From a virus (lineage: Duplodnaviria > Caudoviricetes), in the IMG/VR virus record IMGVR_UViG_3300044724_008054, positions 1,129 through 65,128 of that record: a stretch of DNA of 64,000 nt. The stretch is one strand, 5' to 3'. The translations under genes and the position numbers were made by a program. Within the stretch, counting starts at the first letter, position 1, and each line of letters begins with the position of its first letter. Of this stretch, positions 5,561 to 29,659 are shown one piece after another. The notes beneath the pieces are model-generated. The model made no database searches, was not told the origin of the DNA, and saw only the letters and a program-made list of their open reading frames with translations.

Positions 5561-5561
5561 C

Positions 5562-5846
5562 TTACCACCAATAACTTGCCACGCCGTAGCCGTAGACATT
5601 TATGATTGCGAAGTAGCCAGTGATCATCATCACGAACGCCGCTTCTCTCCTGTATGAAGCATAACATTGTGTGAGTGCTCCTACTAGGAATCCCGGATAC
5701 ACTATAGTCATGTCCGGATCCGAGGCTGTGATCGCAAGTGTTAGGCTGGCTCCAACTGTGAAAATGAAACTGACGAGTTCGAAGTAGAACGCCGTCCTGT
5801 CACTCTCAAAACTACGAAGCCAGAATGATCTGACTTTCGCCAACAT
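5562..5846 (-). CDS. small membrane protein (about 3 TM helices)
   Basis: Hydrophobic 94 aa ORF coupled by overlap to its neighbours. Confidence 0.6.
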   Translation of the reverse strand: MLAKVRSFWLRSFESDRTAFYFELVSFIFTVGASLTLAITASDPDMTIVYPGFLVGALTQCYASYRREAAFVMMITGYFAIINVYGYGVASYWW

Positions 5847-6157: not shown

Positions 6158-6184
6158 ATTATTTTTTCTTGGTGGCCTAGTATT

Positions 6185-6793
6185 TTACCGCAAGAACCTT
6201 CGAAGGTCTTTTTCCACTTGTGCTATTTGGTCATCCACTGTGTCTCTGTCATCATCGGAGTTATTGATCACGTGTAAATCATCAAACAAACGCCGGAACC
6301 TTCCCAGATTTTGTGTAATGGTTTTGAAATTCCGATGTATTAGTTCATCTGGTAATGTACGTTCCCTTTCTTTGTTCCTACGCAGTGCGGTCTGTAGATC
6401 TGTGTTGACGAAAACCATGGTCGTTTCATATCCTTTGTCCTCGAGCTCTTTGTTGATATCTCGCACGGTTTCGTATGATCTGCCGGTTGAATCGATCAAC
6501 AAGCCCAGGCCACTCTTGGTGTGTGACTGTTGCTGTTTGGCGACCAATTCTTTTGATCTTTGCCTTTGTCTTTCTCTCTCGGGTTCTTCTTCGGGAGGCA
6601 TTTTCCAAGACAGGTTTTTCTTTGTCATGAGACGCTTGAACCAGATATCCATGTTCACCTGTTTCAATCCTTGAAATGTGCCTGCTAATCTCCTGGCAAC
6701 ATACGTCTTGCCCGCACCGGGAGACCCAGCGAAAAAAATTGCCTTGTGGGTGTAAGGATCATGAGGACCTTCTGTGATGTCTTTGATCTTCAT
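6185..6793 (-). CDS. P-loop kinase (zeta-toxin/AAA_33-like) with capsid-targeting-like leader
   Basis: Walker A GSPGAGKT, LLIDSTG, lid ALRRNKERERT; N-terminus MKIKDITE. Confidence 0.75.
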   Translation of the reverse strand: MKIKDITEGPHDPYTHKAIFFAGSPGAGKTYVARRLAGTFQGLKQVNMDIWFKRLMTKKNLSWKMPPEEEPERERQRQRSKELVAKQQQSHTKSGLGLLIDSTGRSYETVRDINKELEDKGYETTMVFVNTDLQTALRRNKERERTLPDELIHRNFKTITQNLGRFRRLFDDLHVINNSDDDRDTVDDQIAQVEKDLRRFLR

Positions 6794-7185
6794 TTTTTTT
6801 TGGTTTTGACGTTTTTGGCTTTACCACGCCTGTTGGGATTGGGATCTTGTCTTCTCTTTCTCTGAGCCGCACTCGCCCTACCCTTCTTGCCGAGAGCGTA
6901 GGCCTTCTTGGCTGGTAAACATTTCGGTTTGCCTTCCTTCTCACTGCCACGAGCACAGGCTCCACGGATCTTGCCCTTGGGACCGAAACGCACCCATTTC
7001 TGTTTGAACCATTTCTTGAGGTCCTCGTTCAATGTCTCTGCCATTATGATGTCGCCACAACGCACACAGAAGTCGACGTCCTCACGTTTGACGCAGTTGG
7101 GCACACGTTTTCCGAACATGGTCTTCATGCCCCGCTTCTCGTACCCCTTCCAACACTTCTCTGTGATTACGTCTGTGATTCTCAT
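6790..7185 (-). CDS. modular basic Cys-containing protein, putative internal head protein
   Basis: Leader MRITDVITE followed by three short modules separated at Glu; ATGA overlaps on both sides. Confidence 0.6.
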   Translation of the reverse strand: MRITDVITEKCWKGYEKRGMKTMFGKRVPNCVKREDVDFCVRCGDIIMAETLNEDLKKWFKQKWVRFGPKGKIRGACARGSEKEGKPKCLPAKKAYALGKKGRASAAQRKRRQDPNPNRRGKAKNVKTKKK

Positions 7186-7364
7186 TTGCTCTTGTTACCC
7201 CAGTTGGCCGCACCCTTCTTGCGACACTGGACCAGAGCACCACTGGCATAGGCCGATGGCCAAACTTTGTATCTTGATTTAACCTTGTGGTAGCAGGCGT
7301 CCTTCTTCTCTGCCAATTTCTCAAATTCGGCTTCGGATATCCCAACTACTTCCGTGATCTTCAT
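7182..7364 (-). CDS. small basic protein, putative internal head protein
   Basis: MKITEVV leader plus KKDACYHKVKSRYKVWPSAYASGALVQCRKKG module. Confidence 0.6.
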   Translation of the reverse strand: MKITEVVGISEAEFEKLAEKKDACYHKVKSRYKVWPSAYASGALVQCRKKGAANWGNKSK

Positions 7365-9317
7365 TTACCATTTCCTGCATGACCAATATCTGGCCTTGGT
7401 CTTTGGTCCTGGGTTGGCACAGTTGTGACGTGCCCTGAAACTTTTCCTCGCCTTTGGATTTGACTTCCTGATCTTCATCGTCTTCTGTCCCGCCTTCCTG
7501 GCTGAACTTCCACCGTGTCCGAAGTTGACCTTCTTGACGTTGCCAGATTTTGGATCTTTGACATACACTTTGAATTTCTTCACATCACCACGCATTGGTT
7601 TATTAAGCGGAACTTTACGTCCTCTGTACTCCGCGTCAAACAATTCGTTCTCGTCTTCTGGGAAACCCAGTTCACCAAACGCTTCGTAGAACGCATCATC
7701 GTCCTCGAAAGTCATCTCGTCTTCTTCTGGGAACGGTTTGAATGATTCTTCTGCTTGGACTTGTTTGAACATTGAAGAACCCGCCACTTTACCTATGGCT
7801 GTGCTGGCCACGTCGAAGTGTGCCCTGCCCTTCTCCTGTTGTCCCTGTTCTGACCATTTGATGGATCCTGACGGCATGCCCAGTGTCTTCTCCAGTGCGG
7901 CTTCCACCGCCTTGTCCGTGTAGATCTCCCATGGTCCGTCGTGTTCCATTGTGAGTTCCACGTAGTCATCCATGTCAGGATAGTGTGATATCATGATGGA
8001 CTCCACGTTGATCACGCCTGGGATATCGGCCTTGTTGGCCCAGACTGATTCTCCGCTGGGTCTGATCGCGAATGCCTTGCCCGTGTATTCGTAGTATTTT
8101 GTTTCGTTGTCGTCTTCCTGGATGCCTGACAGTTCCTTGAGCCTGCTGAGTTCGTCCTCGTGTTCTGAAACTGATTCGGACGCCTGTACTCTTGAAACTT
8201 TTCTCTGCAATGGCGTGCCTTCGAAATCCTGTTGGAAAACCAACATGGCCGACGATATGTGTGGATCGTCGTCGATGTAATCCAGCACTCCTCTGATCGT
8301 CTTGACCGTGTAATCTTGACCTTTGCTCTTTAACTTTTCTAGGCCAGCCGTATAGTTCGTGGCGTGTTGTGAAAAATCCTTGGCTTGGTAGTAACCATCA
8401 TCATTCGTTAACAGATCTTCATCACCGAATTTTTCCTCCACATCCAATACATCGTCTGCGAATTGATCTAGGTTGCCTTTGGCATGTGATTGTTGTAAAA
8501 ATTCCTTTACTTTTGGAAGAAGTTTTATCTGTTCGTCATCGAGGTCATATGGATCATCGCCAATTTCATTCACTCCTTCGAGAGCCCTTTCAAAATATTC
8601 GTTTGCGGTGGCAGTCAACCACTTCGCGAACTGCTGTCTCTCCTGTGGCGTTAACGGAGTCTTGTCCACGTCACCGTATTTCTCCATGTTGTCCGCATAT
8701 TCATCACGATTTTCATAATCAAAGTAATTGTCGCCTGCGTCTTCTGAAACTGATTCATCTAGTGCCACCAGGGCCTCTTCCGCGTTTGTCAGTGACTGCA
8801 ACGCTGACCTCTTGGCATCCTCGTCCACAGACAGTGCTTCCACCCTGTCCTTGATCTGCGATATGTCCAGCATCACCTTCGTGAATTCAATCTTGTCGTC
8901 GTCCGCCAGTTCGTTGATCTCGTTTGTTGGCACGTGTGCACCGCCCTGCATCTTTTCGTAGTGTTCCGCGGCCTCTTCTGGAGTTAGACCTAACTCATCA
9001 GCATGACCCATGAACTGGTCCTTGGTCATGTTCTGTGCCATATTGGCGATCTTCTCGCCTGCGTCTTCCTGCACCGGTACGTTCACACCGTCGATCCTGT
9101 TTAGTATGTTTCTTATTTCTACCATTGATTCTGCTATCGGTGAGTTGCCCATCTGCATCTGTGTCCTGTCGTTTGTGAATTGTGTTGTTTTTGCCAAACC
9201 CCTGCTACCTGCACTTGCTGGAGACTGGATCTGTTTGCCTGCGTCTACTGTACCCTGATCACGCAGTCTAACTGTGTCATCAACGTATTTGCCATAGTTA
9301 TAGGGTATTGAGCTCAT
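7365..9317 (-). CDS. acidic modular polyprotein with basic C-terminal module
   Basis: 650 aa; repeated QEDAG/ESVSEDAG/ESVSE/QEDD boundaries; ATAAATA late promoter 6 nt upstream. Confidence 0.7.
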   Translation of the reverse strand: MSSIPYNYGKYVDDTVRLRDQGTVDAGKQIQSPASAGSRGLAKTTQFTNDRTQMQMGNSPIAESMVEIRNILNRIDGVNVPVQEDAGEKIANMAQNMTKDQFMGHADELGLTPEEAAEHYEKMQGGAHVPTNEINELADDDKIEFTKVMLDISQIKDRVEALSVDEDAKRSALQSLTNAEEALVALDESVSEDAGDNYFDYENRDEYADNMEKYGDVDKTPLTPQERQQFAKWLTATANEYFERALEGVNEIGDDPYDLDDEQIKLLPKVKEFLQQSHAKGNLDQFADDVLDVEEKFGDEDLLTNDDGYYQAKDFSQHATNYTAGLEKLKSKGQDYTVKTIRGVLDYIDDDPHISSAMLVFQQDFEGTPLQRKVSRVQASESVSEHEDELSRLKELSGIQEDDNETKYYEYTGKAFAIRPSGESVWANKADIPGVINVESIMISHYPDMDDYVELTMEHDGPWEIYTDKAVEAALEKTLGMPSGSIKWSEQGQQEKGRAHFDVASTAIGKVAGSSMFKQVQAEESFKPFPEEDEMTFEDDDAFYEAFGELGFPEDENELFDAEYRGRKVPLNKPMRGDVKKFKVYVKDPKSGNVKKVNFGHGGSSARKAGQKTMKIRKSNPKARKSFRARHNCANPGPKTKARYWSCRKW

Positions 9318-9326
9318 ATGCTGTAT

Positions 9327-9968
9327 TTATTTCCACAGCACCATCTTGAAACGTTCTTTGTCTATACCAAAGAACCGTGTTTTCCATTCGCTCTGCTCGA
9401 AAAAGCCCAATCCGTGCCATTCTTCCTTGCGTTCCAGCATCTGTTCTGCCCTTTCATCCCAGTCCTGGTTCACGAGGAACTCCTCCATCCGCGCCTTCTT
9501 GTCCTCGATCTCGTTGTATTCGAAACTGTCATACTCCCAGTGTAGCAGTTCGAACACGTTGCCGTCCCTGTCACAGTAGTCTATTGAAAAATCTAATCCC
9601 CACTTAGGTTTCATCGACACCAGTTTGTGGAACTGTGGCCTGTAGTCTGCCCATGATTTCAGTTGTTGCAGTGCGTCTCCGCTATACCCTTTCCTCTCGA
9701 ACATCACAGCATGATTTATGTGTGGACCAGAATCTGGGGAATCAGCAGTGAACCATGTTTTTCGTAGTGTGATGTGTTCCCCGTCCCTGTGTTTTGTGGT
9801 ATTTTCGCCGTTGGCCACAGCATATAGTTGTTCCAGTCGAGTAAGGTCATAGCCATTCTGGTCAAACAGGTCAACTGTGTCTTTGGGTGGACAGGCAAAC
9901 ACACTTGTGATACGTTCACTCCAGTAGGGATTGGGGGTGAATTTATTGTCGGTCAAGTGTAGTTGCAT
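9327..9968 (-). CDS. hypothetical protein
   Basis: 213 aa ORF on the majority strand; late-promoter-like TAAATA upstream. Confidence 0.7.
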   Translation of the reverse strand: MQLHLTDNKFTPNPYWSERITSVFACPPKDTVDLFDQNGYDLTRLEQLYAVANGENTTKHRDGEHITLRKTWFTADSPDSGPHINHAVMFERKGYSGDALQQLKSWADYRPQFHKLVSMKPKWGLDFSIDYCDRDGNVFELLHWEYDSFEYNEIEDKKARMEEFLVNQDWDERAEQMLERKEEWHGLGFFEQSEWKTRFFGIDKERFKMVLWK

Positions 9969-9991
9969 ACACTTATATTTAATTTTTTAGA

Positions 9992-10864
9992 TTATTTTTT
10001 TTCTGATGGGTCTAGGTCGTTTGTGAACTTGTCTTCTGCGGGCAGTTCTACTTCTTCACCCATTTCTTCGTCATCGAACTCTGGGTCTAGCATAGGAAGT
10101 TCACCGTCATCGTCTTTCTCGTCTGACTTGTCCTCTGCTTCTTCTTCACCGTCTTTTTCCGGTGTGTGTGGCTCTTCTTTGTTTCTGTCGTAATCCACAA
10201 AGTCTTTAGTTTTTTCACTTACTTCAGCATCTGCAATAACTTCCTCTTCTGGTGCTTCTGCCTTCTCTGCATCTGCTATGATCTCAGTAGTTTCTGGAGT
10301 TCTAATAATAAAAGCATTCTCGTTCATGTCAACTTCGTTGGCTGAGAACTTGTTGTAAAGTTCCACTAAATCTGTTGCTTCTGCTTCTTTGACGTATTCT
10401 GTGATTTCTTTTGTGAACACTTCTCTGAATGCTTTGTCATCCATGGTGGCATCTTCTTTTTCTGCCGCTTTCAATTCTGCCAGTTGTGTTTCTAGTTCTG
10501 CAATCTTGTCCAATCTTTTAACTTCTTCGTTCACTTCTTTTTTGATAGAAGTTGATATGGAATCATCTGCGTCTGATTCTGCAATCGCTTTTGTTATGAC
10601 AGATTCTGCTTTTGGTTCAGCAACGATAGACTCTACTAATTTTTCTGCTTTTTTAGAATGTTTTACTGTCTCAACATACTCCTTGATGCCTGCTAGTCTG
10701 GCAATGTCAGCCAATGAAACTTCTTTATCATCCAATACTTTTGGTGCTTGTCCAACAGATTCTATCAATGCTTGTCTTTCCTGCTCTGGAGTAACATTAT
10801 TCATAGCATTCAAACGAGCTACTAGATCCCTGAAACTTGTGTCTGCTGATTTTTTTGTTGCCAT
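9992..10864 (-). CDS. acidic scaffold/prohead-core-like protein
   Basis: Very Glu/Asp-rich, coiled-coil, DIARLAGIKE motif; TATAAATA 5 nt upstream. Confidence 0.5.
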   Translation of the reverse strand: MATKKSADTSFRDLVARLNAMNNVTPEQERQALIESVGQAPKVLDDKEVSLADIARLAGIKEYVETVKHSKKAEKLVESIVAEPKAESVITKAIAESDADDSISTSIKKEVNEEVKRLDKIAELETQLAELKAAEKEDATMDDKAFREVFTKEITEYVKEAEATDLVELYNKFSANEVDMNENAFIIRTPETTEIIADAEKAEAPEEEVIADAEVSEKTKDFVDYDRNKEEPHTPEKDGEEEAEDKSDEKDDDGELPMLDPEFDDEEMGEEVELPAEDKFTNDLDPSEKK

Positions 10865-10890
10865 ATGAGTATTTATAAATTGTTTCGTGT

Positions 10891-12855
10891 TTATTTAAGA
10901 CGTTGATTTAGGTTTATTTGCAGTTTTGACTCGTATGTCAGGCTCTCTGTCTGTATGAATTTCTCATACTTGTCCTGTAGGTATTTGACTTGATTCAGAT
11001 CCTTGCCTATGTCAAGCCTCAATTTAGCACCTTTCAGGTCTTTTTCAATTTGTGCCACTAGATTATCGTCGCCTCTCTCTTTTGCCATTTCTAGTGCTGT
11101 GTTCATTGCCTGTATTGCCGGCACACTGTTGTTGATTGCATCGTTGATTGATCCAACGCCTGCCAACCCTGCAACAAATACACCCGCCATTGCTAGGCTC
11201 TTTGCCCAGTCTTTGATTTTGCCTTCATCCAAATCCATCTCATTCACATCTGCTGTGACAGTTTGTTTTTTGTTTGCCCTCATTATCAACTGTCTAAAAA
11301 CTTGTGCCAACTTAGGATCAGCCATTATCTTTTGTATCTGTGCGGCATATGGTGCCAACTGCTTGATCTGTACCGGATCCATTCTCTGTCCTTGGGCCGC
11401 CTTGCCCAGTCCTTTTGCGACCTGTTGTGCCGATCCACCTTGTTGTCCCAACACACCCTTCATCTGATTGGCTCTCTGTGCCACTGATTTTGCTACATCC
11501 TGTTGTGGTTGTGGTTGCTTCCTGTTAACTTTTCCGGCGAAACTGTCCGCCGCAATTTTATCTATCAGTTTACCTGCCTGTTGTTGGTTGATCGGACCCT
11601 TCACGTACTGCATGTACTTCTGATCAATGCCTTGTTTCTGCAGGAATCCTTGTAATATATTTGGTGCAATCTTGTTCTTGTCTCCCCTTTGCTGTCCAAC
11701 GTATTGTGCTAATGCTGTATCTAGTTCTGCTGACTTCTTGTCCACATCAACTCTGCCTTGTAAACCTGCCGCGGTTTTCTTCATTCCAACAGCACCTGCC
11801 GCCTTGGCACCTAACTTTCTTGCCCCAGTACCGAATGCTTTTTTAATACTGTCCAACGGTCCTTCGTTTGTCTCTTTCCTGTTCTCTTTGGCTATCTCTT
11901 TCTCAACTTCGTTTACTCTTTTCTTTAATATTCTCATCATGCCTGGTTTTGTGTCAACATCTTCCGCCCTGCATTTCCTCTCCAAGATCTCGTCTAGATG
12001 TTTCTGTATTATTCCTGCGTGTTTCTGCATCAATGAACTGTCTAGTTCTTCCCTGTATGGATTTAACTTCTGGTAGTCTTCGTAGTGGTAAACTGCTTGT
12101 AGGTAGTCCGCCGCTAGGTTCAGTTTGGTCTGCACCCAACCCTCAAGGTCATCACCTTTTTTGATCATGTCCAGTAGTTCTATTGACATCTTGGCAGTCT
12201 GGTACAACTGGCTTTTGCTCATGTGTCCCTCGCCCGCGTCCTCTGAAACTGATTCCGTGCTGTTGAATGCTTTCTTGAACTCCGGAGAGTTTACTATGTT
12301 CTGTGCGTATTTGATTGTGTCTGCTGTTGGTTTAAATTTTAAAGTGTCTCCTATATAGCCTGCCTTTTCAATATCAGCCATATGATCTCTGATCGCTCCC
12401 GTGACTTCTCCTCCGATTGTGTCATCTGCCCTTGCGTTTGCATCTAGGTCATTAAGTGGTCTTCCATCATCCATGTCATCGTAATAACTGTCCCAAGCCG
12501 GTATATCTATAGGTTGTCCTTTCGCCAATCGCATAAGTTCAAGTCCATGGTCTTCTACTTTTTCGTTAGACCACGCCTCCGCATCAAAGTCCGCGTCTTC
12601 GGTCATGCCCGCGTCATCGTAGGTGCCCGCCTTTTCGCCAGCGGTGTAACCGTGTACACTTTTCACGTAGTTTGATGCCAGGTCGATCTTCTTGGCCACC
12701 CATGCCTCCATCTCCTGGTCGTCCTTGATCATGTTGTGTATCTTGATCGCGTGTGTGCCTATCTTCAGCAGTTGGTTCAGTGCCATGCCGGCCTCGTAGG
12801 TGTCCGGTTTCACTTCCGGTTTCTGCATGAGTTCGTGGATGTCCTCGAACTTCAT
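10891..12855 (-). CDS. modular polyprotein with a duplicated helical domain, putative internal head protein
   Basis: MKFEDIHE leader; two copies of the domain (EAGMALNQL...EAWVAKKIDLASNY / EGHMSKSQL...EGWVQTKLNLAADY); ESVSEDAG boundary. Confidence 0.7.
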   Translation of the reverse strand: MKFEDIHELMQKPEVKPDTYEAGMALNQLLKIGTHAIKIHNMIKDDQEMEAWVAKKIDLASNYVKSVHGYTAGEKAGTYDDAGMTEDADFDAEAWSNEKVEDHGLELMRLAKGQPIDIPAWDSYYDDMDDGRPLNDLDANARADDTIGGEVTGAIRDHMADIEKAGYIGDTLKFKPTADTIKYAQNIVNSPEFKKAFNSTESVSEDAGEGHMSKSQLYQTAKMSIELLDMIKKGDDLEGWVQTKLNLAADYLQAVYHYEDYQKLNPYREELDSSLMQKHAGIIQKHLDEILERKCRAEDVDTKPGMMRILKKRVNEVEKEIAKENRKETNEGPLDSIKKAFGTGARKLGAKAAGAVGMKKTAAGLQGRVDVDKKSAELDTALAQYVGQQRGDKNKIAPNILQGFLQKQGIDQKYMQYVKGPINQQQAGKLIDKIAADSFAGKVNRKQPQPQQDVAKSVAQRANQMKGVLGQQGGSAQQVAKGLGKAAQGQRMDPVQIKQLAPYAAQIQKIMADPKLAQVFRQLIMRANKKQTVTADVNEMDLDEGKIKDWAKSLAMAGVFVAGLAGVGSINDAINNSVPAIQAMNTALEMAKERGDDNLVAQIEKDLKGAKLRLDIGKDLNQVKYLQDKYEKFIQTESLTYESKLQINLNQRLK

Positions 12856-12856
12856 C

Positions 12857-13486
12857 CTAGTTGAATCCCACGTGTGTTATTTCTGGATGTTCTTTCTTGA
12901 ATCTTGTGGCTTCTTGGTGTACCGCTTCCACGTTGTCGTACTCCACAGAATCTTTGTCCTGTGCGTTGATGCGTAGGAAGGCGTCCGTGGCCTTTAGGAA
13001 TTCGTCAATTGGGTATGGACTGGTGTTCTCGAAATCTCTTTCAAGTCCCAGTGATCCCAGTATTGATCTAGCCGTCACGTTGCTGACGTGTCCTATGTTG
13101 AACTTCATGCCCTTGGGATATGACCAATAGCCCTTTTCCTTGTCCTTGTAGTAGCCGTAGAAGTCAGCGCCTTCGTTTATCTCTGAATCTGCAAGATCTT
13201 TAACAGGTTCCATGGTAGAGAAGTAACCTTCCTGGTCACCATACATCTTCCTGAAAGTTTCTGGATCTTTCTTTGAAATAACTTTCATCACATACTCCCT
13301 TGGAGATGTGTCAGCATAGTATAGATGTTGTGCCAGTGATTTCAACTTTCCAGCGTCCAACAACTCAGCGGACTTCTTGAACATGTCATAGTCCATGCTG
13401 TCTGAACCAATCTCATCAGCGTATCTGCTGATCGTTCTTGATGCTAACGTTGATCCTTTGTCTTCTTTAAATTCGTGGAATCTCAT
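12857..13486 (-). CDS. hypothetical protein with capsid-targeting-like leader
   Basis: MRFHEFKE start; ATAAATA 8 nt upstream. Confidence 0.65.
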   Translation of the reverse strand: MRFHEFKEDKGSTLASRTISRYADEIGSDSMDYDMFKKSAELLDAGKLKSLAQHLYYADTSPREYVMKVISKKDPETFRKMYGDQEGYFSTMEPVKDLADSEINEGADFYGYYKDKEKGYWSYPKGMKFNIGHVSNVTARSILGSLGLERDFENTSPYPIDEFLKATDAFLRINAQDKDSVEYDNVEAVHQEATRFKKEHPEITHVGFN

Positions 13487-13497
13487 AGTGTCAGTAT

Positions 13498-13671
13498 TTA
13501 TGCTTGGCAGGCGTCACATCTACACTGCCGACACACCTCTATGTCGTACTCGAAATATCCGTCTACAGGGTAGTGTTTTTCTTTCCTTTTGCACTCCTTG
13601 CCGCAGTGTGAGTCGCAACCGCAGTTCTTACACTTGATTGCCCATTCCTCTTTTAGAACCAGTGTGCTCAT
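13498..13671 (-). CDS. small Cys-rich metal-binding protein (57 aa)
   Basis: Not in track. MSTLVLKEEWAIKCKNCGCDSHCGKECKRKEKHYPVDGYFEYDIEVCRQCRCDACQA; TAATG overlap with upstream gene; fills the gap exactly. Confidence 0.7.
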   Translation of the reverse strand: MSTLVLKEEWAIKCKNCGCDSHCGKECKRKEKHYPVDGYFEYDIEVCRQCRCDACQA

Positions 13672-13943
13672 TATCTTCTTATACCCGGTCCACCGAACAG
13701 GCTCACGCCTGGAAGTGCGTGTGCACCTTTGGCTGTGCCATTTGGGTTCTTGTGTTGTACTATTTTGGGCAACTTAGGTGCTTTTGTGCCTGACTTACCA
13801 GGGGTGCCTGTGTATGATTTCTTGAATCTGTCTCTGCCTATCGCTATGTGTGGTGATACTACTGATGCTATGTTGCCCGAACTTGTGGCACCTGCGGTTG
13901 CATTCTCTTGTATTCTCTTGATGATTACTTCGTTGATTTTCAT
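13671..13943 (-). CDS. small basic protein with capsid-targeting-like leader
   Basis: MKINEVIIKRIQE then NATAGATSSGNIA; ATAAATA 8 nt upstream. Confidence 0.65.
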   Translation of the reverse strand: MKINEVIIKRIQENATAGATSSGNIASVVSPHIAIGRDRFKKSYTGTPGKSGTKAPKLPKIVQHKNPNGTAKGAHALPGVSLFGGPGIRR

Positions 13944-13950
13944 TCTATTG

Positions 13951-14742
13951 TTATTTATTCAGTCCTGCCTTCAGCATATAAGTTAAAAATACAGGACACA
14001 TGAAGCAGTACAGTTCGTTTAAGAAGCGATCACTGACGTTCTTGGGTCTTATGACTTTTATGCCATTCCAATCAGTCAGATAGTATTCATAACAGAACGA
14101 ATCTCCCATGGTCAGCATATTGCCAACGAAATCTTCTTTTCCGTCCTGGACCCAATCGTCTTTTTCAGCATCATATTTTGTTTGATTCCGGAGACCAGGC
14201 CAACTCCAATCTTGCACGGTGTCATGATCATAAGGGCTCGATCTTCCATGATTACGGCCAAGTACATCAGGCAGTTCCTTGTCCACAAGACTTATGTCCT
14301 CGAAATATTTCTTAGGTAGTAGTGCTACCATGTCAAACTGGAAAGACGAGGCCTTTGACATAAATCCGTTTGTGTAGTTGTTGTTGTTATGATTGATCAC
14401 ATTCAGCGTTAATTTGTTTTTGAGCATACTGTCGTCTATCTCAAATGTGAAAACTTTTTCGCACACTGACCACTTGTCGTCCCAGTGTTTCCATTTGCCA
14501 TACTTTGGAAATTTGCACTCCCACCTACTCGTTCCCCAACCGGATTTTGATTTTGCTACTTCCCTAGGCCAGAGCTCAGAGAGCTCAGCGTTATGATACG
14601 GATGCACCAACTCACCGTTCTTTCGACCTATCGACTCATGCAACTCAATGCTGTCTATGAGCAGATCATCAGCGAACAGTTCTATGATAGCAGGTTTCTT
14701 GTAGTGTTTGTATTCGAATGCCAGCAATAGAATGTACTTCAT
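13951..14742 (-). CDS. hypothetical protein
   Basis: Long ORF; likely start MKYILL at 14742, after the upstream stop. Confidence 0.65.
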   Translation of the reverse strand: MKYILLLAFEYKHYKKPAIIELFADDLLIDSIELHESIGRKNGELVHPYHNAELSELWPREVAKSKSGWGTSRWECKFPKYGKWKHWDDKWSVCEKVFTFEIDDSMLKNKLTLNVINHNNNNYTNGFMSKASSFQFDMVALLPKKYFEDISLVDKELPDVLGRNHGRSSPYDHDTVQDWSWPGLRNQTKYDAEKDDWVQDGKEDFVGNMLTMGDSFCYEYYLTDWNGIKVIRPKNVSDRFLNELYCFMCPVFLTYMLKAGLNK

Positions 14743-14756
14743 AGTACATGTAATTA

Positions 14757-15500
14757 TTATTTCTTTTTTCTTCCGGATTTCATGTTGGCACACCAGTGAT
14801 ACATCTTTGCACGTTCACCTGATGCTTTTTTGGCCTTGCTTCTCAATGACGTGACAGAGCCGTTGCAACTGGCACCTGAACGTTTCACACGTCCGGGTCT
14901 GCTCTTGCCCTTCTTCTTGCCATCCGCGAAGTTCTCATTAAACTCTCTCCAGTCCAACTTCAATTTCTTCACGTTCATGTACTGGCCGCCTACAGGAACA
15001 TCTTTAGTTGCGTTCTGTTTTGTTACTATGCCAACACCTGCAGTTTCTTCTATGTCTTGTGGTGGAACAATTTTTGCCTTTATGGAACTGGCACCTGCTT
15101 TCCTTTGCCCCCAGAAACGATGATGTCCGTCTATAACTTGATAACCGTTTTTGTGTTTCCTTGCAAGTATGGGTGGCATAGGTTGTTTATTTTGCACAGC
15201 CTTTGCGATTTGATTCACTTTTTCTATGCTCTTAGGATCACTCATTTTGTCTTCTGGCTCAAATCCAATCAATTGTTTGATAGGAACATTCATAACTGGT
15301 AAGCCACTTGAATTATATTTTTCTACACCAACTGCACCAAAATATTTTGGATCTGTTGATAGTTTAATTTTGTTTTCGTTTGCTTTGTTGTTGCTATGAT
15401 TTTTAAAACCAAATCTGTTGTTTGGGCCTGTTCCGGGTTTGTGTATGAGACCCATTGTGTCTGCCGTGTGTGGCATTATTATGAATTCTCGTATCTTCAT
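14757..15500 (-). CDS. ParB/Srx-like domain protein with leader and basic C-terminal module
   Basis: PPILARKHKNGYQVIDGHHRF; MKIREFII start; C-terminal Cys/Lys-rich module. Confidence 0.7.
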   Translation of the reverse strand: MKIREFIIMPHTADTMGLIHKPGTGPNNRFGFKNHSNNKANENKIKLSTDPKYFGAVGVEKYNSSGLPVMNVPIKQLIGFEPEDKMSDPKSIEKVNQIAKAVQNKQPMPPILARKHKNGYQVIDGHHRFWGQRKAGASSIKAKIVPPQDIEETAGVGIVTKQNATKDVPVGGQYMNVKKLKLDWREFNENFADGKKKGKSRPGRVKRSGASCNGSVTSLRSKAKKASGERAKMYHWCANMKSGRKKK

Positions 15501-15724
15501 TTTTTCTTCCCCGCACAGTGGGCCTTCTGTGAGAACCCTTTTGGATTGTTACAATTAATACTTTTTTTGTATTTCTTTGACCAGCCTTCCACCCTGTAAG
15601 GATACGCCATCATGGAGTGATACCCCATTCTTCTTTTACCGGTCATTCTCTTCTCAATCTTTTTCAGTTGAGTGAGTACGTCCGGGTGTACGTATTTTGT
15701 AGCAAGTACCTCCCTGATCTTCAT
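15497..15724 (-). CDS. small basic protein with leader
   Basis: MKIREVLA...E-GWSKKYKKSINCNNPKGFSQKAHCAGKKK. Confidence 0.6.
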   Translation of the reverse strand: MKIREVLATKYVHPDVLTQLKKIEKRMTGKRRMGYHSMMAYPYRVEGWSKKYKKSINCNNPKGFSQKAHCAGKKK

Positions 15725-15725
15725 G

Positions 15726-15911
15726 TTACAGATCTTTCAGTGCTTCAAGTTTGTCTATTGCGTCTGCGAGTGCTTCAAGTTTCTTTTCTGCTGTAACCGT
15801 ATAGTCGATGTGTTCTGCAACACCGATTGGGTTTGCCAGGAAAGTCCTTAGATCTGCCTTTGCAACTTCTACGTCACCTTCGAGTTTTTTAACAAGTGCT
15901 TCTTTTATCAT
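15726..15911 (-). CDS. small coiled-coil hypothetical protein
   Basis: 61 aa; ATAAATA 5 nt upstream. Confidence 0.6.
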   Translation of the reverse strand: MIKEALVKKLEGDVEVAKADLRTFLANPIGVAEHIDYTVTAEKKLEALADAIDKLEALKDL

Positions 15912-15919
15912 ACTGCTAT

Positions 15920-16528
15920 TTATTTGTCAGTTTTGTTGACGTCTATAGTTCCGTGTCTTCCGTCCTTGGCCGGATTACCGTCTTTTAAAATCTGTGCCCA
16001 TGTGACCATGTTGATGGCACAATTTTTTACCTGATCGACTGTGTCATCGTCCTGCGTTATTTCGTCCATTCCCTGTGCTTTTGATTCGACGTTGCAGTTT
16101 GGTGGGATAGTCAATCCAAAGTTGGAAGCGAAAGAATATAAATTCCCATGTATCTTCTGGAATCCGTCACCGCCACCCGATACCAGTGATCCAAATACTT
16201 TGTTGTAGAAAGGCTGATGTTTGTTTTCTTTGGACCAGTTGTATATGGGATCCATTCTTTCCATCAAGCCTTGTATGTGACAACTGTGTCCACTCCACCA
16301 TATGGGTGTTGCGAATACCACACCGTCTGCCTTGAATATCTTCATTATCTCTGGTTTGAGCTCATCGTCGATGTCCGCGGTCGAGCCCTCATAGTTTAAG
16401 TCACGAAGTGTGATGATCTCACAATCCTGTCCTAGTTTTTCAAAAGCCAACTGCAACATCTTACACACTGCGAACGTGTTTGACTCTGCATCAGGCTTCA
16501 GACTGCCATTGAATATTAAGAACTTCAT
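15920..16528 (-). CDS. NADPH-dependent FMN reductase / flavodoxin-like protein
   Basis: FLIFNGSL, DGVVFATPIWW, NKVFGSLVSGG; start moved to the ATGA overlap at 16528. Confidence 0.8.
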   Translation of the reverse strand: MKFLIFNGSLKPDAESNTFAVCKMLQLAFEKLGQDCEIITLRDLNYEGSTADIDDELKPEIMKIFKADGVVFATPIWWSGHSCHIQGLMERMDPIYNWSKENKHQPFYNKVFGSLVSGGGDGFQKIHGNLYSFASNFGLTIPPNCNVESKAQGMDEITQDDDTVDQVKNCAINMVTWAQILKDGNPAKDGRHGTIDVNKTDK

Positions 16529-17202
16529 TTTTTCTTTGCCTTGTTGTGTGCCGCCCACGCAATGGCGTAGGGTGCTGATTTATCTTTCTTGAATTTTTTC
16601 TTCAGTCCTTTGACCATCTTCTCCTTGCCCGGAGGAGCAACTTCTGTCATGTCTTCTGATCTGGTCACGATCACACCACAGGCCAATCTTTCACCTGCGT
16701 TTCCTGTTTTCAAACTTTCTGCGTCTCCGCCCTTGCCTAGGTCATCTTCGTCTTCATGCACCACGAATCCTCTACCTATAACGGAACGTTCTCCGATCAA
16801 GTCAACCCTCTTTGCTTCGATGGTAAACTTCGCTATACCAGATTCATCTGCTGTGATGTTGCCAAGGTCACCTACGTGTCCTTCGTTGATGTCTCCATGG
16901 TCTGCTCCATCTGGATTATAATGTCCGCCCATGCTCTTGCAACCATCACTCATGTCTCCAAACTCGTGTATGTGGAATCCGTGCAATCCAGGTTCCAGTC
17001 CTGTGATTGTGCCTTTGATGAGAGTAGGTGTATTTGGTGCCTGCATAAGCAATATAGTGCCCTTTACAGCGTCAGAATGTTCAAGTGTGCATTGTGCTAC
17101 CACTGTCTGTTCTGCTTCTGTTATCGTGCTGATTTGTTCACAAGTGCATTCTTTTGCTCTTGTTCTAGGACATTTCGTTTCTGTGAATTCTAAGGCTCGC
17201 AT
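16525..17202 (-). CDS. sodC: Cu/Zn superoxide dismutase with N-terminal leader and basic C-terminal module
   Basis: HGFHIHEFGD, GGHYNP, HVGDLGNI, GRGFVVH, GNAGERLACGVI. Confidence 0.92.
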   Translation of the reverse strand: MRALEFTETKCPRTRAKECTCEQISTITEAEQTVVAQCTLEHSDAVKGTILLMQAPNTPTLIKGTITGLEPGLHGFHIHEFGDMSDGCKSMGGHYNPDGADHGDINEGHVGDLGNITADESGIAKFTIEAKRVDLIGERSVIGRGFVVHEDEDDLGKGGDAESLKTGNAGERLACGVIVTRSEDMTEVAPPGKEKMVKGLKKKFKKDKSAPYAIAWAAHNKAKKK

Positions 17203-17213
17203 GTTGCGAGTAT

Positions 17214-17420
17214 TTATTTGTTTTTGGGTATTGGGTTCTCACCAGTGAGTTTAGGCTGTGCGAACCACAGTTTGAACCACTCGGGTGTACCCGCTTTTAT
17301 GTTGTGTTTTCGCTGATACTCTGCTTTTGCAGTGCCGATGTAGGAAAGATTTTCACCCATGGAATCTTCTTTGGGCAGATTATCTATACCTGCTAATCTT
17401 TTTAATTCTTCAATGTCCAC
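17214..17420 (-). CDS. small hypothetical protein
   Basis: GTG start directly after the upstream stop; ELKRLAGI motif. Confidence 0.6.
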   Translation of the reverse strand: MDIEELKRLAGIDNLPKEDSMGENLSYIGTAKAEYQRKHNIKAGTPEWFKLWFAQPKLTGENPIPKNK

Positions 17421-17600
17421 TTATATTGTCCAGTTTTTTAATTGTTCTTTTGTAGGTTTATGTGCTTTGACTTTCTCAACCTTGCCACCCTTTGCCAGAA
17501 AAGCCTTCATCTTGTCGTCTAATTCTCTTTGTTTTTCCTGTGGTGTTTTCTCTATGTCTCCAGACGCATATGGTCTATTGATTCCGCTAAACTTTGGCAT
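17421..17600 (-). CDS. SutA-like RNA polymerase-binding domain protein (59 aa)
   Basis: Not in track. MPKFSGINRPYASGDIEKTPQEKQRELDDKMKAFLAKGGKVEKVKAHKPTKEQLKNWTI; the M-x-x-FL-x-x-GG-K-V core resembles SutA. Confidence 0.5.
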   Translation of the reverse strand: MPKFSGINRPYASGDIEKTPQEKQRELDDKMKAFLAKGGKVEKVKAHKPTKEQLKNWTI

Positions 17601-18747
17601 AGTCTTCTAATCCTTTCTTGACTTTTTCTAGTGAGTCTCTGTTTGCTTGATATAGTATTCCGTAACCTCCGGCCGCCTGCCACTTCTGTATGTTGACTGG
17701 TCTGTCATCGATCAGTATGTTTGGTGTACCTGTGCCTTTGTCTTTGGCATAAGATTCTTTTCTACCTGTCACTATTATTTCATCTGGTTGTTCTATGTTG
17801 TTTGATATCCAAACTTTTTTATACTTGGCACTGTTCTCATGATCTCCTCTCAACGGAGAAGTGTTAATGCTGAACTTTCCGCCTGTGAATTTCTTGACCA
17901 TATCGATCAGTGCGTCTGCTGTTGGAAACTTTGGCAACACTGCAAAGAAATCAGTACCTGTGATTCTGTCAATCACTTGTTTTTTCAAATCTTTTGTTTT
18001 GTCGTTCGTCAGTTCCTTCCAGTGTTCGACACCATAAAGGAATTCCACACCACCGAAGAAGTCTGCTAGGACTCCGTCCATGTCAAGATATACAATTGGT
18101 TTACCATCTGTCATATCTTCATTATACAACTTTTTGTTGTTTTCGTCAATCTGCTCCGCAAGTCTATCTTGTAGTATACTGTACAATTTTTTACCAGTGT
18201 TTCCACCCATTATCACTTTGCTGAATTCATGTTCTTGTCCTTTGTTCGCAAGTTCTCTGGCCTTGGATGCCGAGGCACCTGAGGCACCTTCCTGGTCTGG
18301 ATCCCTTTCGCCAGCACTCACAACATCAATGGAATCAAACTTGTATTCGACATTACCGGCCTTGGTTGGTTTACCATTGTATTGATTCAATAGTTTCTGG
18401 AATTCCATTACCCTGTCCGAGCCAGCGATCATGACAATTCTTGTCCGGCCTTCTGCCTGGATCTTCTGTAATGCCTGTATGATTGTTTTGACACCAGCAT
18501 CTCCTATTGCCAGTTGAGGATAGAACATTTTCATGTAATCCTGCTTTTCTTTGAAAGTCAAAGGATCTTTTTTATTGTTTTGTGTGTGTGTTAAAAATAC
18601 ATAACCTTTTCCATTAACTTGTTTAGTCATGGAAATGACTTTGTCTAGTAATTTCTGGTGTCCTATTGTGGGTGGATTGAATCGGCCAAAGGCAAAGACT
18701 GCTGTTGCTCGATCGTCCTCCCTAAGAAACAGTTCCCTGAGGTACAT
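17587..18747 (-). CDS. cytidyltransferase-like (HIGH) domain fused to a HAD 5'(3')-nucleotidase-like domain
   Basis: FGRFNPPTIGH and AGSDR in the N-half; YLDMDGVLADF and ILIDDR in the C-half; leader MYLRELFLRE. Confidence 0.8.
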   Translation of the reverse strand: MYLRELFLREDDRATAVFAFGRFNPPTIGHQKLLDKVISMTKQVNGKGYVFLTHTQNNKKDPLTFKEKQDYMKMFYPQLAIGDAGVKTIIQALQKIQAEGRTRIVMIAGSDRVMEFQKLLNQYNGKPTKAGNVEYKFDSIDVVSAGERDPDQEGASGASASKARELANKGQEHEFSKVIMGGNTGKKLYSILQDRLAEQIDENNKKLYNEDMTDGKPIVYLDMDGVLADFFGGVEFLYGVEHWKELTNDKTKDLKKQVIDRITGTDFFAVLPKFPTADALIDMVKKFTGGKFSINTSPLRGDHENSAKYKKVWISNNIEQPDEIIVTGRKESYAKDKGTGTPNILIDDRPVNIQKWQAAGGYGILYQANRDSLEKVKKGLEDYAKV

Positions 18748-19078
18748 CGTATTCGCCTTGTTTAATATTTTCTAGTTCTCTGTCTGAAATGATTCTTGCT
18801 AATTGTTCTCTTGTTTCTTTAGGAAACATTGATGCCACATCGTCCTGTGTAGAGCCATGTTCTTTCACGTATTCCTTCGCGGCATCATCAATCAGGTACA
18901 TCCAAAGTTTCTGTGCCTTCTCATGGTCATACACATTCTTCTTTAATTTTCTTCTGATGTTGGATATAATGGGCATAAAACGTCTACGATACAGGTCCTC
19001 ATTGTTCATGATGTAGGTATCCAGCTCGTTTACAGCGTCTGAGTCTATTTGTTCTTTAATGAATTGTGATGCTCTCAT
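18722..19078 (-). CDS. hypothetical protein with capsid-targeting-like leader
   Basis: MRASQFIKE; TATAAATA 7 nt upstream. Confidence 0.65.
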   Translation of the reverse strand: MRASQFIKEQIDSDAVNELDTYIMNNEDLYRRRFMPIISNIRRKLKKNVYDHEKAQKLWMYLIDDAAKEYVKEHGSTQDDVASMFPKETREQLARIISDRELENIKQGEYDVPQGTVS

Positions 19079-19093
19079 ACAAGCATATTTATA

Positions 19094-19576
19094 TTAATAA
19101 AGGTTCTCTAATAGCCACATGTAGAATGGTGATCTAAATTTGAATTTCCATTCTCCATTATGACCCATCTCTGTAACGTTTTTAAAAGATTCTCTCAGCT
19201 CTGTGCCAGACTCACGTTGTTGTGTTGCCCATGGTTCTGGATATTGTGGAGTGTAGATGCCCTCATACACCAATCCACCTATGTCTATCTCATCTATCTC
19301 TATGGACTTGATGTTTAATAGTTGATCTTTGAGCAGGTCTCCGTTTTCGTTGACAACAGTTTGATTTCTACCCTTGCCGGATCTTTTGATGATCAGAGAA
19401 CATTCCTTTCCCTCCTCAATTTCTGCTTCAAATTCTATCAGTGTTGGGTTGTCATCTGTGCTAGTGATGTCGTCGTTGTAGTAACTTTTACCATCCACTA
19501 CTATTTCTACATGAGGAGCCTTATCCCACATGGTTGCGTATAGTTCTAGTTTAAATTTTAGTTTTTCTGTTGCCAT
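19094..19576 (-). CDS. hypothetical beta-rich protein
   Basis: 160 aa ORF on the majority strand. Confidence 0.6.
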   Translation of the reverse strand: MATEKLKFKLELYATMWDKAPHVEIVVDGKSYYNDDITSTDDNPTLIEFEAEIEEGKECSLIIKRSGKGRNQTVVNENGDLLKDQLLNIKSIEIDEIDIGGLVYEGIYTPQYPEPWATQQRESGTELRESFKNVTEMGHNGEWKFKFRSPFYMWLLENLY

Positions 19577-28787: not shown

Positions 28788-29659
28788 AGGTCCTTTATCT
28801 TCTTCAAGTCCGCGGCACTCAATTGTGGAATCAGCACGTGTATCTTAACGTACAGGTTCCCACGTATGCCTATTGTCTTGTGTACGGGCATTCCCTGTCC
28901 TTTGACCTGTAGTATGGTGTTGGGTTGTGTGCCCGCAGGTACTTTTACTTTAATTATTTTGTCTTCCAGTGTCCGGAGATTGAATTCATATCCACGCACT
29001 GCTTGGAAGCAGTCTATGGTCTTGTCTGTGTATAGGTCATTGCCTTTCCTTGTGTAGCCGTCTGAGTCAAGTACACTCATCACTACCATCAGATCACCAC
29101 GTGGTAGGTTCTTTATAGAATCATCACCCATGCCTGAGTACTTGAATGTGACACCGTGTTGCACACCCGCTGGAATGTTCACTGTTGCGAACTCCTCCCT
29201 GCCACTTGGCAGTTTGTAGTTGATAGTCTTCTCACTCTTGGTCATGGCTTCCTTGATGCTGATTGCCATCCTGACTTGTACGTTCCTGTTGCCCCTAGTC
29301 TGTGTCCTGTTCTGCCTGAAGATCCTCTCACCGCCTGGTCCTCTGGTGAAGTTGAAACTGGTGTTGAAGTCCATGTCTCCACCCTGGAAACCCGAGAAGA
29401 AGTCACCGAATATGTCCTCGTTGAAGAACGGATGCTGTCCGCCTCCGGTGTTGGCGTTGCCAAACTTACGCATGGTGTCGTAGTCGTGCCTCTTCTGTGA
29501 GTTCTTCAGTGTGTCGTGTGCCTCGTTTATCTCCTGGAACTTGTCCTTGTCACCGCCCCTGTCTGGGTGGTGTTGCTTGGCCAGGTCCTTGAATGCCTTC
29601 GTGATGTCCGCACTGGTGCACTGTTCATTCACACCTAGCACGTCATAATAATTCTTCAT
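28784..29659 (-). CDS. dnaJ: DnaJ/CbpA-type co-chaperone (no zinc finger)
   Basis: J-domain with HPD, G/F-rich linker, C-terminal GDL/GNL repeats. Confidence 0.9.
   Translation of the reverse strand: MKNYYDVLGVNEQCTSADITKAFKDLAKQHHPDRGGDKDKFQEINEAHDTLKNSQKRHDYDTMRKFGNANTGGGQHPFFNEDIFGDFFSGFQGGDMDFNTSFNFTRGPGGERIFRQNRTQTRGNRNVQVRMAISIKEAMTKSEKTINYKLPSGREEFATVNIPAGVQHGVTFKYSGMGDDSIKNLPRGDLMVVMSVLDSDGYTRKGNDLYTDKTIDCFQAVRGYEFNLRTLEDKIIKVKVPAGTQPNTILQVKGQGMPVHKTIGIRGNLYVKIHVLIPQLSAADLKKIKDL

Follow-up and report, generated by a model that had tools for sequence, protein, structure and literature searches.

Several proteins of the bacteriophage T4 head are made with a short N-terminal leader, the capsid-targeting sequence (CTS), which is reportedly removed by the gp21 prohead protease (work attributed to Mullaney and Black, 1996). 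Repoila et al. are said to have described, in 1994, polymorphic internal-protein loci of T-even phages whose products have the leader as their sole common feature, and the principle of one leader on otherwise differing internal proteins is thus established. The CTS of IPI, IPII, IPIII, Alt and gp24 has been reviewed (PMC9026906 and PMC3012670); IPI and Alt are injected, and in IPIII residues 4 and 7 matter in targeting and residues 8 and 10 in processing (PMC9026906). In the phiKZ-like giant phages SPN3US, phiKZ and 201phi2-1, ejection and inner-body propeptides are cut at A/S-x-E (PMC5694885). The locus described here occupies positions 6185-19078, on the minus strand, of a 64-kb window (the whole stretch of DNA analysed) from a 65-kb viral contig, and holds eleven genes whose products begin with a leader of the T4 kind. 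With a probability of about 0.75, this leader is the lineage's own CTS, by which late proteins would be docked and then trimmed by a gp21-type protease, the trimmed proteins staying in the head.

Like the T-even internal-protein loci, the cluster is hypervariable, with a cargo that turns over from strain to strain. The T-even cargo has been described as small anti-restriction proteins, whereas the array here is larger, lies beside the family-B DNA polymerase gene polB (2897-5599, minus strand) and mixes enzymes with modular basic peptides. With the phiKZ-like phages the lineage shares a homologous protease family, which there cuts after Glu, and would share the delivery of many head-internal proteins to the host; the phiKZ-like propeptides are mostly longer than 100 residues, with no short common tag, and belong to another lineage with no T4-type scaffold. 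What is new is the lineage, that of a marine jumbo phage both distant and abundant, the extent of the array and the enzyme cargo, notably a Cu/Zn superoxide dismutase (SOD), together with optional basic tails behind putative protease sites and a link to unexplained cyanophage virion proteomics.

The leader and the genes that carry it

The eleven leader-bearing open reading frames (ORFs) are listed below (h, hydrophobic residue; x, any residue).

18722-19078, minus strand: 118-aa orphan protein, leader MRASQFIKE with I-K-E ending at residue 9, leader score 13.5 bits; first gene of a late unit
17587-18747, minus strand: 386-aa fusion of an NMNAT-like cytidylyltransferase and an NT5C 5'-nucleotidase, leader MYLRELFLRE with L-R-E ending at residue 10
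16525-17202, minus strand: 225-aa Cu/Zn SOD, leader MRALEFTE; Sod_Cu 9e-46
15497-15724, minus strand: 75-aa basic protein, leader MKIREVLA with no h-x-E behind it, leader score 12.6 bits; Cys-containing basic module at the end
14757-15500, minus strand: 247-aa ParB_N-like protein, leader MKIREFII joined straight to the body; ParB_N 1e-4; basic C-terminal module
13671-13943, minus strand: 90-aa protein, leader MKINEVIIKRIQE; highest leader score, 17.7 bits
12857-13486, minus strand: 209-aa orphan protein, leader MRFHEFKE with F-K-E ending at residue 8
10891-12855, minus strand: 654-aa modular protein, leader MKFEDIHE with I-H-E ending at residue 8; internal ESVSEDAG joint at 12241-12255
7182-7364, minus strand: 60-aa basic protein, leader MKITEVVGISE; body a SAYASGALV..CRKKGAANWG module; phrog_727 6e-24
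6790-7185, minus strand: 131-aa basic protein, leader MRITDVITE with I-T-E ending at residue 9; CWKGY..VPNCV module followed by a second basic module
6185-6793, minus strand: 202-aa P-loop kinase (Zeta-toxin/AAA_33 fold), leader MKIKDITE with I-T-E ending at residue 8; Pfam 5e-14; phrog_12810

A first-pass annotation of the window had quoted eleven N-termini of the form M-[KRY]-h-x-[EDQ]-h, most of them ending in h-x-E, on otherwise unrelated ORFs. In the ORF list and in a crude gene call each of the eleven was found as quoted, at the first ATG and on the minus strand. By the crude gene call the motif is present in 11/19 ORFs of the region and in 0/81 elsewhere in the window (Fisher p 5e-10), and as a regular expression it matches just 12 of the 2476 Met positions in the six frames of the window. 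An h-x-E stands at residues 8-13 in nine of the eleven leader ORFs, compared with 7/89 of the other ORFs (p 3e-7); two of the nine have F-x-E only. In all eleven the leader starts at Met1 and spans 8-13 residues, or 29 in the SOD. When the 19 cluster proteins were compared with one another by BLASTP, each matched only itself, in keeping with unrelated bodies. A leader profile, which the annotation had recommended, was built and scanned over the window and gave bimodal scores, with the eleven leader ORFs at 7.0-17.7 bits and the next ORF at 4.5. The first 27 nt of the leaders are just 30-78% identical and use synonymous codons freely, which argues for selection on the peptide and not on a DNA or RNA element.

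Pfam searches bore out the proposed enzymes, namely the Zeta_toxin/AAA_33 kinase fold, a weak ParB_N, the Sod_Cu domain and CTP_transf_like plus NT5C. The ParB-like protein also matched ParB PHROGs and ParB/Noc structures (1.5e-3) and had no cultured-phage match. The 118-aa and 209-aa proteins had no match in Pfam, PHROGs, PDB sequences, the protein atlas or cultured phages (tblastn).

Relatives used for comparison were G001 (138.7 kb, polB 95% identical, syntenic across the cluster), G002 (137.6 kb), G003 and the contigs L001-L101. The contigs hold 88 distinct leader-bearing N-termini. Positions 3 and 6 are hydrophobic in 11/11 leaders of the window and in 74/74 distinct clade leaders, partly as a consequence of the regular expression by which they were collected. 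Orthologues exchange one valid leader for another with the pattern kept: the same CWKGY body is preceded by MRITDVITE, MRASEIITE, MKINEILE or MKVNEILE, the 209-aa protein has eleven orthologue variants with varied leaders that keep the motif, and all twelve variants of the 118-aa protein have it. Orthologues of the 654-aa protein range from 292 to 654 aa and have the N-terminal module in common. Single-linkage clustering of the leader proteins lumped families through chimeric relatives and was not used as a family count.

Six leader ORFs of G001 are at the cluster locus and one is elsewhere, and G002 has four or five at the cluster locus, so that in these long relatives the leader is confined to the same locus save for the one in G001, whose other late structural genes are without the motif. 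The cargo set differs from strain to strain, and some strains have leader proteins that are not in the window. The kinase, 131-aa and 60-aa genes beside polB are present in the window and in L023; the kinase is absent from G001, L013 and L015, in which neighbouring cassettes are absent or replaced. The locus is a variable cassette array, and related strains have different cargo sets.

Contigs from marine RNA libraries, from strains 90-99% alike, join across 6176-6809, 13943-14778 and 15488-19070; the joined sides are 19-26 nt and give a hint only. The first join would remove the kinase cassette, the second would remove a 280-aa ORF, and the third would fuse the leader of the 118-aa gene to the ParB-like body; L089 has MRAKEFIIMPGT.

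Likeness to the T4 capsid-targeting sequence

The N-termini in the T4 record are MKTYQEFIAE|A for IPII and IPIII, MKTFKEFT..STITE|A for IPI, MAKINELLRE|S for gp24 and MNEPQLLIE for gp21. The likeness to T4 that had been asserted for the marine leaders holds in position, length, hydrophobic spacing and the h-x-E end. The marine leaders are one residue shorter, with the hydrophobic residues at 3 and 6 and h-x-E at 7-9 taking the places of T4 residues 4/7 and 8/10, and MKAQEFIQE and MRASQFIKE come near to T4 MKTYQEFIAE. A hidden Markov model of the 74 distinct clade leaders was run on the N-termini of 238 crude T4 ORFs (88% of T4) and picked out the known CTS proteins, placing gp24 3rd, Alt 7th, IPI 9th, IPII 13th and IPIII 14th. 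By chance, all five would rank this high (14th or better among 238) with a probability of about 3e-7; the two best hits were artefacts of crude start calls.

Both systems have a leader of 8-19 residues that starts at Met1 with Lys/Arg second, a pair of hydrophobic or aromatic residues spaced three positions apart, unrelated bodies and a protease family present in the lineage. To these may be added an h-x-E end with a small residue behind it, in those marine leaders that have the site, and late expression, here predicted from promoter motifs. The cluster differs from T4 in tolerating F-x-E, in having two leaders without a cleavage site, in its eleven tagged genes in one 13-kb array, in the extra C-terminal basic modules behind h-x-E in some of the cargo, and in a cargo of recognisable enzymes (SOD, kinase, ParB-like protein, NMNAT-like enzyme plus nucleotidase) instead of small basic proteins alone. 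As the leader is nearly the same as the T4 CTS, the eleven tagged late proteins are likely to be packaged in the virion and processed by the head protease.

Head module of relatives and the capsid mimic

A gp21-type protease, implied by the proposed trimming, is present in the clade: G001 has a Peptidase_S77 (1e-24) within a T4 head module, and G003 has a protease too. The G001 module follows the T4 order, with Portal_T4 (3e-109), an 80-aa acidic ORF beginning MKLMEFF, two ORFs, Peptidase_S77, a 354-aa ORF at the gp22 position and Gp23 (5e-99); the protease, the gp21 homologue (L158:11913-12545), begins MASLYLRE. The 80-aa acidic ORF is the sole leader hit outside the cluster, was outside the training set, and sits at the position of T4 gp67, an 80-aa core protein.

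The major capsid protein (MCP) of G001 (L158:13638-14810) has the N-terminal stretch ..RYLAE|QSTAGATSAGNVATL, and the 90-aa leader protein of the window has ..KRIQE|NATAGATSSGNIASV; the latter is identical to MCP residues 37-56 at 10/20 positions (E 1e-4). In an alignment with T4 gp23 the L-A-E41 site of the MCP lies 12 residues after the known T4 cut, and for this reason the MCP cleavage site is just a candidate. The 90-aa protein appears to copy this candidate propeptide/N-arm junction of the clade's MCP, and may be a decoy for the capsid lattice or the protease, or a duplicated MCP N-terminus.

Some of the tagged proteins may be head components instead of injected enzymes. That such a structural or assembly role (core, scaffold-associated, shell-lining or DNA-condensing) is the general rule, with the leader still targeted and cut and the bodies not forming an injected payload, is unlikely. 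The shell protein gp24 has the most similar leader in T4, the outside-cluster leader ORF of G001 is at the gp67 core-protein position, the 90-aa protein mimics the MCP N-arm junction, and several tagged proteins are tiny, very basic modules suited to DNA binding; set against this are four tagged proteins with intact enzyme folds, the SOD with its metal-ligand motifs kept, a cargo set too variable between strains for structural parts, and the precedents of T4 IPI and Alt, which are injected (PMC9026906). For the small basic proteins and the 90-aa MCP mimic such a role is a real possibility.

Sorting by the leader to another destination (membrane, tail or baseplate, or export) is very unlikely, as both the context of the head module and the resemblance to T4 indicate the prohead, and nothing specific favours another route. 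Bacterial SodC proteins, the relatives of the SOD, are normally exported, whereas the leaders, made up of 8-10 residues that are charged or amphipathic, lack a hydrophobic core, have Glu/Asp at position 5 and at positions 8-9, and are not built as Sec or Tat signal peptides. An export signal was excluded on this leader composition.

Radical-SAM paralogues are numerous in the relatives (10 in G001; 12 in G002, of which one, at 69498-69800, is inside the cluster), and the leader might then be a recognition sequence for a modifying enzyme (a partner like those of ribosomally synthesized and post-translationally modified peptides) and not a sorting signal. This is scarcely probable. The window's 65-kb contig, which holds the eleven tagged genes, has no Radical_SAM match, the nearest match in G001 is weak and lies some 18 kb away from the cluster, the leaders share a degenerate motif where near-identical tags would be looked for, and both the likeness to the T4 CTS and the virion data would be left unexplained. 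The paralogues are mostly in one block (G001:C1 at about 25-63 kb, plus 97 kb and 132 kb; G002:C1 in 12 places).

Late promoters

Seven late-type promoter motifs lie in the cluster.

9324, 10870, 13495, 13952, 15917, 17211 and 19086, minus strand: ATAAATA late-type promoter motifs, span 9318-19092

Each stands 5-8 nt before an ATG (9317, 10864, 13486, 13943, 15911, 17202 and 19078), and together they split the cluster into seven short units. Several leaders had been noted to follow ATAAATA directly; this is so for four of the eleven (ATG at 13486, 13943, 17202 and 19078), 7-8 nt behind the motif. The window has 19 ATAAATA sites where 10.1 +/- 2.6 are expected, 18/19 lying on the coding strand. 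In the intergenic gaps of the cluster there are seven promoter-like sites, all of the late type, and sigma-70-like hits in the cluster are all intragenic and without excess (30 vs 21 +/- 4.6). Outside the cluster, near-consensus TTGACA-N17-TATAAT sites stand right before genes of the window, one of them ahead of the ATG at 29659. In G001, ATAAATA also precedes structural genes, and a gp55-like gene (recognised by eye from its N-terminus) lies beside gp47 and gp46 homologues. Contigs from four RNA libraries cover parts of the cluster and cannot show transcription, strand, starts or timing.

No Shine-Dalgarno sequence was found at the seven ATAAATA starts (9318-9330, 10865-10876, 13487-13501, 13944-13958, 15912-15923, 17203-17217 and 19079-19092). 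With ATAAATA 5-8 nt before the ATG and no Shine-Dalgarno sequence, the mRNAs would be leaderless or nearly so if transcription starts as at T4 late promoters. The early-type TTGACA-N17-TATAAT sites elsewhere in the window are equally close to their genes.

At such a spacing the first codons could matter in initiation, and the shared N-terminus could be a by-product of translation-start optimisation on leaderless or near-leaderless late mRNAs; alternatively it could be a scar of cassette recombination, in either case with no function at the protein level. The variant joints from the RNA libraries that fall near leader starts (15488 to 19070 and 13943 to 14778) point weakly to a scar, with sides of 19-23 nt. 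We regard both forms of this explanation as most improbable. Only four of the eleven leader genes directly follow a promoter, and of the other seven, six abut the gene before them or overlap with it; where identical promoters stand before non-leader genes (ATG at 9317, 10864 and 15911) the motif is missing, as it is from the other late structural genes in G001; the leaders vary in synonymous codons; and an invariant Glu 29 residues into the SOD is not explicable by a start effect.

Superoxide dismutase propeptide and tails

The SOD consists of the leader, a Cys-rich spacer ending in I-T-E at residue 29, the SOD core and a basic tail behind M-T-E. It has no signal peptide and retains the metal-ligand motifs. 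Thousands of relatives were found in metagenomes, one of them (P0006) on a contig of 315 kb, and the best 120 cluster representatives (66-92% identical) were aligned. Among these 120, M1, R2, A3, E5, F6 and E8 are nearly fixed with position 4 free, and the spacer has three invariant cysteines. E29 is present in 120/120; I/L/M occupies position 27, T predominates at position 28 and A/G/S/D stands at position 30, while positions 22-26 and 30-32 are variable. Residues 27-30 thus match the pattern expected of a protease site, with a hydrophobic P3, Glu at P1 and a small P1'. The putative 29-residue propeptide ends in STITE|A, as does the propeptide of T4 IPI.

The family has three forms, tailless (184 aa), with the basic tail of the window's protein, and with another basic tail; in the tailed forms the tail starts after [IVM]-x-E. 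Processing of T4 Alt takes place at both ends (PMC9026906), and the SOD likewise has a candidate h-x-E at both ends of its core. In cultured phages the SOD matched only exported prophage SodC and one Acinetobacter phage.

The C-terminal tails of the family are exchangeable (region 16525-16660, minus strand, in the window). The second tail type (P0008, P0029 and P0074) contains VMYATATKQAM, which resembles the N-terminal region of the cyanophage virion proteins Syn9 gp114 and S-SM1 gp115.

Nucleotidyltransferase, basic modules and cyanophage virions

The 386-aa protein matches the Pfam families CTP_transf_like and NT5C and the families phrog_3041 and phrog_395. It is homologous to the cyanophage proteins S-SM1 gp190 (E 3e-32) and S-SCSM1 NMNAT (E 1e-25), with 36-44% identity in the enzyme core. 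S-SM1 gp190 is T4-GC190 and begins MKKFSAFLNE|A; the S-SCSM1 NMNAT begins MKSFLQFLKE|A, its annotation as a virion protein being based on mass spectrometry. Like the enzyme of the window, both have the homologous core behind a 10-residue leader that ends in L-x-E; the enzyme of the window differs in being fused to the NT5C nucleotidase.

The virion status of these homologues was taken from the text of PMC3037559 and from GenBank notes. According to the available text of Sullivan et al. 2010, the putative cytidylyltransferase T4-GC190 is among the proteins detected by mass spectrometry in purified S-SM1 virions (PMC3037559). The available text of PMC9602691 places the NMNAT of S-SCSM1 (ORF91) in virions by mass spectrometry, and states that NMNAT-like proteins recur in cyanophage virion proteomes, with the mechanism left open. 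No mention of a capsid-targeting sequence as an account of virion presence was found in a full-text search of PMC3037559 or PMC9602691, within the text available, and in the open literature no paper was found that ties such a sequence to cyanophage enzymes or to SOD.

The idea of an addressable leader gains from the nucleotidyltransferase family, in which more distant homologues exist with and without it. The leaderless homologues L102, L123 and L134 start MS.AVFTFGRMNPP at the enzyme core, as does coliphage A4 gp407, and leader-bearing homologues begin MKTFKQFFNE (L110), MKKFSAFLTE|A (S-RIM8) and MKKFSAFLSE|A (P-RSM1). The first-pass annotation had also called the system expanded, which agrees with eleven tagged genes here compared with a handful in T4 and two ORFs with a strict T4-type leader in S-SCSM1; given just two in S-SCSM1, the array of eleven is a real expansion.

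The basic proteins likewise have cyanophage relatives. The 131-aa protein matched 287 cyanophage records by tblastn, and the modules of the 131-aa and 60-aa proteins, together with the C-terminus of a 650-aa protein of the cluster, are concatenated in Syn9 gp114, S-SM1 gp115 and S-SCSM1 gp029, the last annotated 'virion protein'.

The gene before the cyanophage virion nucleotidyltransferase (S-SM1 gp189, L170:312-1286; S-SCSM1 gp282, L171:1-1168) has a K-W-D-G motif and the look of a ligase-type nucleotidyltransferase. S-SCSM1 gp282 is annotated as a virion protein, and further enzymes may be packaged in cyanophages.

Proposed loading pathway

Docking, cleavage and packaging in this phage are what we infer from the comparisons above. 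The leader, of the form M-[KR]-h-x-[ED]-h-h-x-E and 8-13 residues long, would be the lineage's version of the T4 CTS. The cluster would be transcribed late from its seven ATAAATA promoters, and the leader would dock each product on the scaffolding core of the prohead. After shell closure a Peptidase_S77 protease of the gp21 type would cut behind hydrophobic-x-Glu and remove the leader, and in some proteins such cuts would also free C-terminal basic modules. The trimmed proteins would remain in the head with the DNA, and at least some would enter the host with it, able to act before phage gene expression. Such injection of the tagged proteins is suggested by the example of T4 IPI and Alt.

Roles can be predicted for part of the cargo: pools of NAD or of nucleotides may be the target of the NMNAT-like/nucleotidase protein, the SOD may shield the DNA, or a cell that has just been infected, from superoxide, and the ParB-like protein and the basic modules may bind DNA. 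A wider proposal, put forward tentatively, is that the T4 CTS has been turned into a plug-in loading system, in which any enzyme can be addressed by the leader and given exchangeable, protease-delimited basic tails, and the virion delivers a strain-specific toolkit (NAD/nucleotide metabolism, superoxide removal, kinase, ParB-like protein) against host defences or damage before phage gene expression.

Several points weigh against the proposed loading pathway. Packaging and trimming are here read from the genes of an uncultured phage, no head genes are on the window's own 65-kb contig, and the protease was seen in relatives only. No h-x-E follows the leader in the ParB-like protein (14757-15500) or the 75-aa protein (15497-15724), and the F-x-E end of two leaders departs from the L/I rule of T4; orthologues of the ParB-like protein beginning MKIKDIVERGL... 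have an I-V-E site. The density of h-x-E within the protein bodies is no higher than in shuffles, and as it is not enriched there, internal cuts are not inferable from site density. T4 61.1 (L164, T4 18966-19130), a 54-aa hypothetical protein in the early-gene region, begins MKTFKEFIKE and came 6th in the T4 scan; a CTS-like N-terminus in such a region means that the N-terminus alone is no proof of packaging. The clade profile run on S-SCSM1 did not rank that phage's own two CTS-like N-termini among the top hits; it is thus lineage-specific, a strict T4-type regular expression is needed there, and the likeness is one of pattern, not of strong alignment. S-SCSM1 gp030 (L163:7359-7679), which begins with the T4-type leader MKTFKQFMSE, is annotated as hypothetical between two virion proteins confirmed by mass spectrometry, and is a candidate for a missed internal protein. 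Finally, injection of proteins of 200-650 aa is assumed from T4 Alt.

In T4 itself the leader of gp61.1 is a near-perfect CTS with an I-K-E end, and gp61.1 was not found listed as a head protein in the reviews consulted.

If the leader is the lineage's CTS, the virion content of a highly abundant ocean phage group, and not its genome alone, could be predicted from sequence. The SOD, kinase, ParB-like protein and nucleotidyltransferase/nucleotidase would then stand out as enzymes with a possible role at the very start of infection, the stage at which the outcome depends on host defences, and a Cu/Zn SOD packaged in active form would add a new type to the enzymes of phage virions. The same reading would explain the recurrence of NMNAT-like enzymes in cyanophage virion proteomes that the available text of PMC9602691 leaves open, and the natural, diverse leader variants would be of use in T4-based protein-delivery engineering.

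Source phage

The polB product of the window is nearest to those of the jumbo phages Phosso and Atu_ph07 (45-50% identity), followed by the 121Q/RaK2-like coliphages (42%); no close cultured phage was found for it (42-50% identity to any cultured phage). IMG/VR holds hundreds of fragments with a polymerase 92-99% identical to it, and the studied stretch is present in estuary and seawater metagenomes from 22 studies. CheckV completeness is 18% for the 65-kb contig and 39% for the 138.7-kb relative, from which a genome of about 350 kb is estimated. The source is an abundant uncultured marine giant (jumbo) phage, of about 350 kb by this CheckV estimate.

Leaderless genes of the cluster

Further genes of the cluster are without the leader.

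15920-16558, minus strand: FMN reductase, FMN_red 3e-14, directly after the SOD gene, true start probably at MKFLIFNG
7365-10864, minus strand: co-transcribed genes for a 650-aa acidic modular protein, a 213-aa protein and a 290-aa acidic protein

The FMN reductase has an orthologue in G001 at 79-681. The 650-aa acidic protein has two ESVSE joints and a basic C-terminal module. From their co-transcription alone, we infer that the 650-aa, 213-aa and 290-aa proteins could be members of the cargo system.

The ESVSE peptide stands at module joints of the 650-aa and 654-aa proteins (8742-8756, 8163-8177 and 12241-12255, minus strand), twice as ESVSEDAG, and its V-S-E is compatible with a relaxed protease rule. 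The 290-aa acidic protein and a 68-aa ORF, both leaderless, have in common an [IL]-x-R-L-A-G-I helix motif, at 10685-10696 and at about 17385-17396 on the minus strand.

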